Assembly: GCF_003334785.1 (NCBI RefSeq)
Contig: NZ_QOWV01000083.1
From: Escherichia coli
GTDB lineage: Bacteria; Pseudomonadota; Gammaproteobacteria; Enterobacterales; Enterobacteriaceae
Length of the DNA: 557 nt
Reading direction: 5' to 3' (one strand)
Shown piece by piece: positions 1-557 of this stretch (its first letter is position 1; each line of letters begins with the position of its first letter). Below the pieces are notes generated by a model. It did not search any database. It was not told where the DNA came from and saw only the letters and a program-made list of their open reading frames with translations. The position numbers and the translations under genes are program-made.

Positions 1-557
1 CACCGTATTGACGCTTATTTATTGGTGAGTACTACGTTCCATGGCAGGAGTTCGTCAACACGGTTGGAGGGCCATTCCGGCAGTACGCTCAGAATATGGC
101 GCAGATACGCTTCCGGATCGATACCGTTCAGACGGCAGGTGCCGATCAGCCCGTACAGCAGTGCTCCACGCTCGCCGCCGTGATCGCTACCGAAGAACAC
201 GTAATTTTTCTTTCCGAGACAGACTGCACGAAGCGCTCTTTCCGCTGTGTTATTGTCCACCTCCGCCAGACCGTCATCACTGTAATAACAGAGGGCGTCC
301 CACTGATTCAGTACATAGCTGAACGCTTCGCCCAGTCTGGATTTTTTCGACAGCGTGCCATTCTTCTCCACCATCCATTCATGCAGCGACGTCAGTAACG
401 CTTTGCTTCGCTGCTGCCTGGCTGCAAGACGCTCTGACTCTGGTAATCCCCGTATTTCATCCTCGATGGCGTACAGTTCACTGATTCGCTTCAGGGCTTC
501 TTCTGCCGTCGCACTTTTGCTGCTGATGTATACATCGTGGATTTTTCGCCGGGCATG
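1..557 (-). mobile_element. Internal fragment of an IS66-family insertion sequence (3' part of the transposase gene plus 14 nt of downstream sequence); element ends not in window
   Basis: Inference from the transposase CDS filling the window. No terminal inverted repeat, target-site duplication or the upstream tnpA/tnpB-type ORFs can be seen within 557 bp, so the element boundaries and the specific IS name cannot be assigned. Confidence 0.8.
15..557 (-). CDS. tnpC: IS66-family transposase (TnpC/orf3-type), C-terminal portion; 5'-partial because the frame runs off the right edge of the window; stop codon TAA at 15..17
   Basis: Seen in sequence: my hand translation of the minus strand in the same frame as the 15..374 ORF stays open from 557 to 375 with no stop, giving HARRKIHDVYISSKSATAEEALKRISELYAIEDEIRGLPESERLAARQQRSKALLTSLHEWM joined directly to the track ORF (MVEKNGTLSKK...DNNTAERALRAVCLGKKNYVFFGSDHGGERGALLYGLIGTCRLNGIDPEAYLRHILSVLPEWPSNRVDELLPWNVVLTNK*). 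Established knowledge, recalled from memory and not database-verified: the HARR(K/R) motif, the NN-AER-LR ... K-N-LF-GS--GGER block, the LNG-DP--YL segment and the LLPWN C-terminal tail are hallmark conserved segments of IS66-family transposases such as IS66 and ISEc8-like elements. The symbol tnpC is the conventional name for this ORF type, not a specific element assignment. Confidence 0.9.
   Translation of the reverse strand, partial: HARRKIHDVYISSKSATAEEALKRISELYAIEDEIRGLPESERLAARQQRSKALLTSLHEWMVEKNGTLSKKSRLGEAFSYVLNQWDALCYYSDDGLAEVDNNTAERALRAVCLGKKNYVFFGSDHGGERGALLYGLIGTCRLNGIDPEAYLRHILSVLPEWPSNRVDELLPWNVVLTNK

Follow-up and report, generated by a model that had tools for sequence, protein, structure and literature searches.

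Insertion sequences of the IS66 family reportedly have GTAAGCG termini and generate an 8-bp duplication of the target, and both features are said to be hallmarks of the family. All three ORFs of IS679 are reportedly needed for its transposition. The transposases of the family are said to carry two D residues and an E, with a CwAHxRR motif that follows the second D and precedes the E. DDE transposases usually show an N-x-x-E pattern.

The stretch of DNA analysed here (hereafter, the window) is 557 bases long. It almost certainly derives from the interior of an insertion sequence of the IS66 family (ISEc47/ISEc23 group) and carries the 3'-terminal third of tnpC, which encodes the transposase. 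The reverse complement of the window is identical at 557/557 bases to genes annotated as 'IS66-like element ISEc47/ISEc23 family transposase' in chromosomes and plasmids of E. coli. Related sequence was found in 4,565 of the 5,426 complete E. coli genomes, at a median of 2 places per genome and at up to 42, as well as in 2,048 PLSDB plasmids of Escherichia, Klebsiella, Shigella and Salmonella; a match with 96% identity is also present in a few lambdoid phage records. The contents of the window are already known, belonging to a well-known and extremely abundant IS66-family element, and the finding is an ordinary one.

Domains and conserved residues of the transposase

The minus strand of the window carries, at positions 18..557, the C-terminal 180 codons of tnpC (residues 358-537 of 537), with the 5' end of the gene cut by the window edge. 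This is indicated by the open frame, by the 100% identity to annotated CDSs and by matches to Pfam and NCBIfam models. Most of the fragment (171..557, minus strand; fragment residues 1-129) corresponds to the C-terminal part of the DDE_Tnp_IS66 catalytic domain (PF03050, model positions 155-283 of 284, i-Evalue 1.2e-38), and the IS66 C-terminal element (PF13817, i-Evalue 1.6e-16) occupies positions 39..149 of the same strand (fragment residues 137-173). The NCBIfam model NF033517 (transpos_IS66) matched the 180-aa fragment at 3e-51 with 174.7 bits, just below its curated cut-off of 180 bits because two thirds of the protein lie outside the fragment; on that model, a copy 100% identical to the window reached 450.5 bits with its full-length protein. 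Membership of the IS66 family, proposed in the original prediction from the letters of the sequence, is therefore upheld by profile search, and nothing was found against this assignment.

In the full-length 537-aa TnpC of an identical copy, four domains were recognised: LZ_Tnp_IS66 (PF13007) at residues 60-130 (3e-12) and zf-IS66 (PF13005) at residues 138-182 (8.7e-12), both encoded beyond position 557, DDE_Tnp_IS66 at residues 196-486 (3.1e-97) and IS66_C at residues 494-530.

To explore the conservation of the transposase we aligned eight enterobacterial IS66 TnpC sequences that are 53-97% identical (ISEc47, ISEc23, an unnamed 90% relative, ISKox1, ISKpn24, ISEc22, ISEc8 and ISCro1). Invariant acidic residues appear in this alignment in the expected order: D268/D269 (in HxDDxPV), D332 (in LQADA) and E463 (in DNNxAExALR). 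The columns D458, N459, N460, A462, E463, A465, L466 and R467 are invariant around the glutamate in all eight sequences. Likewise, the segment C355-x-AHARRKIHDV366 is invariant at columns C355 and A357-V366. Only two of these features lie inside the window, both on the minus strand. The first is Glu463 (240..242), in the D-N-N-x-A-E-x-A-L-R motif. The second is HARRKIHDV (531..557, with HARRK at 557..543), which is the second half of the C-x-A-H-A-R-R-K-I-H-D-V motif and is cut by the window edge. D268/D269, D332 and C355 are encoded beyond position 557.

Because Glu463 is conserved and fits the usual N-x-x-E pattern of DDE transposases, it is probably the catalytic Glu of a putative DDE triad, with D268/D269 and D332 as the Asp residues. 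A PDB sequence search with full-length TnpC returned no relative of solved structure at E <= 0.01, and for this reason the catalytic residues were assigned from conservation only.

The complete element, its ends and its truncated copies

The counterpart of the window in plasmid NZ_AP022179.1 (locus L001) is L001:4001-4557, which overlaps the 3' part of an uninterrupted tnpC CDS of 537 aa (L001:2930-4543). The complete element at this locus has 2,541 bp (L001:2033-4573), with the left end GTAAGCGTAAAG... and the right end ...CGTTGACGCTTAC. In complete copies, the left end GTAAGCGT... is followed by tnpA (144 aa), tnpB (116 aa), tnpC (537 aa) and the right end ...ACGCTTAC. The tnpB gene overlaps tnpA by 4 nt, and its product scored 119 bits on NCBIfam IS66_TnpB (cut-off 50). 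These data agree with two expectations of the original prediction, namely that the full protein would have several hundred residues (537 aa in identical copies) and that two small ORFs would precede it. The second expectation is limited to complete copies, since the identical window also occurs in a 5'-truncated copy, described below, from which both small genes are missing.

The terminal inverted repeats were spotted by eye and then confirmed through the 8-bp duplications; an automated repeat search did not detect them, because they are short and imperfect. Direct repeats of 8 bp border three of the four independent copies whose flanks were compared (CCCGATGG at L001, CTTTCAAT at L004 and CCTTAAAA at L005), and no 8-bp duplication was found at the fourth (L003, NZ_AP022177.1 3714142-3717283). 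At this last locus a complete ISEc47 is located within ISCro1, with the ISCro1 tnpB on one side and the ISCro1 transposase on the other. The position of ISEc47 inside ISCro1 without a matching 8-bp duplication suggests a nested insertion followed by recombination between copies. In NZ_AP022179.1, the ISEc47 copy splits a gene for a DinB/UmuC-family (ImpB-like) translesion polymerase, whose halves remain as pseudogene fragments (L001:1817-2032 and 4573-4923), and an IS1203 is found further along the same split gene.

No part of the window extends past the element, whose right end is 16 bp away from position 1. The first 14 nt of the window (1..14, minus strand) belong to the 30-nt non-coding tail that extends from the tnpC stop to the right end, and form the inner part of the imperfect right terminal inverted repeat, as defined by the IS ends and the 8-bp duplications. 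The terminal ...TTGACGCTTAC of the right end is situated 16 bp outside the window; an intact element predicts 16 further bases before position 1, reading ...CTCCGTTGACGCTTAC on the minus strand. Positions 3..13 (minus strand) contain a subterminal motif, CGTCAATACGG, that is kept in 8/8 IS66 elements, in which it is placed 12-16 nt inside the conserved terminal ACGCTTAC. The motif is possibly part of the transposase binding site.

A second feature at this end is a perfect 10-bp palindrome (TAAGCGTCAA-12 nt-TTGACGCTTA) that joins the tnpC stop to the right terminus of the IS (L001:4541-4572; -17 kcal/mol, z = -4.9). One arm, TAAGCGTCAA, includes the stop codon and is inside the window (8..17, minus strand); its partner beyond the window, TTGACGCTTA, constitutes the IS terminus. 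The palindrome is present in ISEc47/ISEc23 and weakened in the 90% relative. It is absent from ISKox1, ISKpn24, ISEc22, ISEc8 and ISCro1, so we rejected it as a feature of the IS66 family and consider it lineage-specific; what is conserved instead is CGTCAATACGG together with the terminal ACGCTTAC. The palindrome could serve as a terminator or as an end-recognition element. An Rfam scan of the window gave no match at E <= 1.

The same 557 bp are found at 100% identity in NZ_CP104511.1 and in similar poultry E. coli plasmids of about 100 kb, in a copy (L002:2890-4573) that has an intact 537-aa tnpC and the right end. Upstream of tnpC, its similarity to ISEc47 reaches no further than about 40 nt, and neither tnpA, tnpB nor the left end is present; the neighbours of the copy are an element of the IS3 family and a truncated transposase pseudogene. 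The mosaic nature of this copy shows in its last 573 bp, which match ISEc47 without a single difference from L001:4001 onwards, against an identity of about 95% in the part further upstream. Its TnpC differs from that of ISEc47 by 10 amino acids, all of them before residue 349.

Such copies raise the alternative that the window derives from a remnant, either 5'-truncated, without tnpA, tnpB and the left end, or reduced to a tnpC fragment. In NZ_CP104511.1 and in at least 7 other plasmids, the identical 557 bp indeed belong to an element that has no tnpA or tnpB, and partial copies are common, given that the window matched 6,147 E. coli records and 3,513 of these cover at least 80% of it. However, most of the top matches with 100% identity are complete ISEc47 elements that have both ends and the three genes tnpA-tnpB-tnpC, 3,255 records contain at least 80% of the 2,541-bp IS, and even the truncated copy retains a tnpC of the full 537 aa. 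We therefore regard a remnant as rather unlikely. If it were one, the gene would still be an IS66 tnpC, but the element could not move on its own. The conclusion that the ORF is longer than first called holds even for the truncated copy, because its tnpC has the full 537 aa.

A more specific alternative is that the window represents a recombinant ISEc47/ISEc23 copy in which tnpC stands alone, with an intact gene and the right end, and, as a separate proposal, that the palindrome acts as a terminator or as a transposase-binding hairpin. Taken jointly, these two ideas are improbable. A solitary tnpC might be kept for supplying transposase in trans or for another role.

The last mismatch between ISEc47 at L001 and the mosaic copy at L002 is at L001:4000, exactly one base past position 557 of the window. 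A contig formed by collapsed repeats and broken at a SNP between IS66 copies would fit this position. Since the upstream divergence is about 5%, the chance that the edge and a mismatch coincide is also about 5%, roughly 1 in 20.

Reading frame, rejected gene models and annotation

Translation of the minus strand from 557 to 15 yields 180 sense codons (HARRKIHDVYISSK...SLHEWMVEKNG...LLPWNVVLTNK) followed by a TAA stop codon (15..17, minus strand), which is in the same place as the end of the annotated CDS at L001:4543; no internal stop or frameshift occurs. In 20,000 mononucleotide shuffles of the window, an open run as long as 180 codons appeared in any of the six frames in 83 cases (about 0.4%), and the other two frames of the sense strand have at most 53 open codons.

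The mechanical ORF list reports in this frame only an ORF of 119 aa (15..374, minus strand), whose first codon is the ATG at 374..372. The 61 codons that run from 557 to 375 are in frame with this call and include no ATG, GTG or TTG, so that the start at 374..372 is a mechanical artefact of the window edge. The original prediction held that the frame is open for these 61 additional codons, up to position 557, which was confirmed, and that the Met at 372..374 is internal and the true start located beyond 557, which is supported by identical copies elsewhere. In copies 100% identical to the window, this Met (372..374, minus strand) is residue 419 of the 537-aa CDS, a position occupied by M or L in the aligned relatives, and is not a start codon. 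In every identical copy examined, the ORF extends 357 codons (1,071 nt) past position 557, where the annotated CDS begins, giving the 537-aa protein. The upstream region of the window itself is outside the 557 bases; if the gene is intact, a further 357 codons in the same frame, beginning MSQKYLIRIAELERLL..., are expected past 557.

The claim that the extension at 375..557 is itself IS66 transposase sequence is equally well supported, as it falls within the single Pfam DDE_Tnp_IS66 match and includes the HARRKIHDV segment, invariant in the eight transposases. These data also bear on the idea that translation begins at Met 372..374 and gives a separate protein of 119 aa, an idea favoured solely by the ATG at 374..372 and the open frame that follows it. 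Against such a protein, the 61 upstream codons share its frame and a contiguous Pfam match and contain invariant residues, the position of the Met is a Leu in several relatives, and all annotated identical copies encode 537 aa. With a domain match that is continuous across the Met and invariant residues upstream of it, the 119-aa protein was excluded and has next to no chance of being real.

Equally negligible is the prospect of a real antisense gene in the plus-strand ORFs 41..322 (93 aa) or 96..398 (100 aa): both exist in the ORF list, but in ISKpn24, ISEc8 and ISCro1 the longest antisense open run is 59-72 codons instead of 127, whereas all 8 elements retain 180 open codons in the sense frame, and the ORFs are annotated in none of the records examined. 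As neither antisense frame stays open across the relatives, both ORFs were rejected as genes, and they probably arise from the codon composition of the transposase gene on the opposite strand.

The importance of these results is limited to the quality of annotation. An ORF caller that requires a start codon reports a 119-aa ORF here in place of the true gene, which encodes a 537-aa transposase and is truncated by the edge of the window. For curators, the window is repeat DNA, a fragment of a multicopy IS66 element whose flanks are not assignable to one locus. The window hides no biology beyond that of a well-known mobile element.

Transposition and comparison with known elements

Sequence identity, domain architecture, element boundaries and 8-bp duplications were observed directly. 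TnpC consists of a coiled-coil (leucine-zipper) region at the N-terminus, followed by a zinc finger, the DDE (RNase-H-like) catalytic domain and, last, the short C-terminal element of the IS66 family. From knowledge of the family, a mechanism can be proposed. TnpC would bind the imperfect terminal inverted repeats, and its D-D-E triad would cut and join the DNA (strand cleavage and transfer). Staggered cuts in the target would give rise to the 8-bp target duplications that we observed, and TnpA and TnpB would act as accessory proteins. Motifs for binding the beta sliding clamp are described in IS66 TnpB and/or TnpC in a published survey (PMC3971601). Identical copies are found at many sites and bear 8-bp duplications that differ from one site to another, which points indirectly to transposition activity. 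The copy behind the window is presumed to be intact and active.

Among the known elements, ISEc47 (NZ_AP022179.1 21853-24393, WP_000080164.1) is identical to the window at 557/557 nt, its TnpC residues 358-537 being the 180 aa encoded here, and it has the same stop and the same tail towards the right end. ISEc47 and the window show no difference within the window, and the remaining upstream 1,984 bp of the element lie outside it. The hybrid labelled as ISEc23 (WP_058100863.1, NZ_CP104511.1) is also 100% identical over the window and differs from ISEc47 only upstream. Canonical ISEc23 (WP_000080195.1, NZ_LS992193.1) has the same architecture and a TnpC that is 97% identical, but displays 21 nt differences within the span of the window. 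The more distant elements IS679, ISEc8, ISCro1, ISKpn24, ISEc22 and ISKox1 have TnpC identities of 53-84% and share the tnpA-tnpB-tnpC order, the terminus ...ACGCTTAC, the subterminal CGTCAATACGG and the CxAHARRKIHDV and DNNxAExALR motifs, whereas the palindrome at the stop codon, as found in ISEc47, is not part of these elements.
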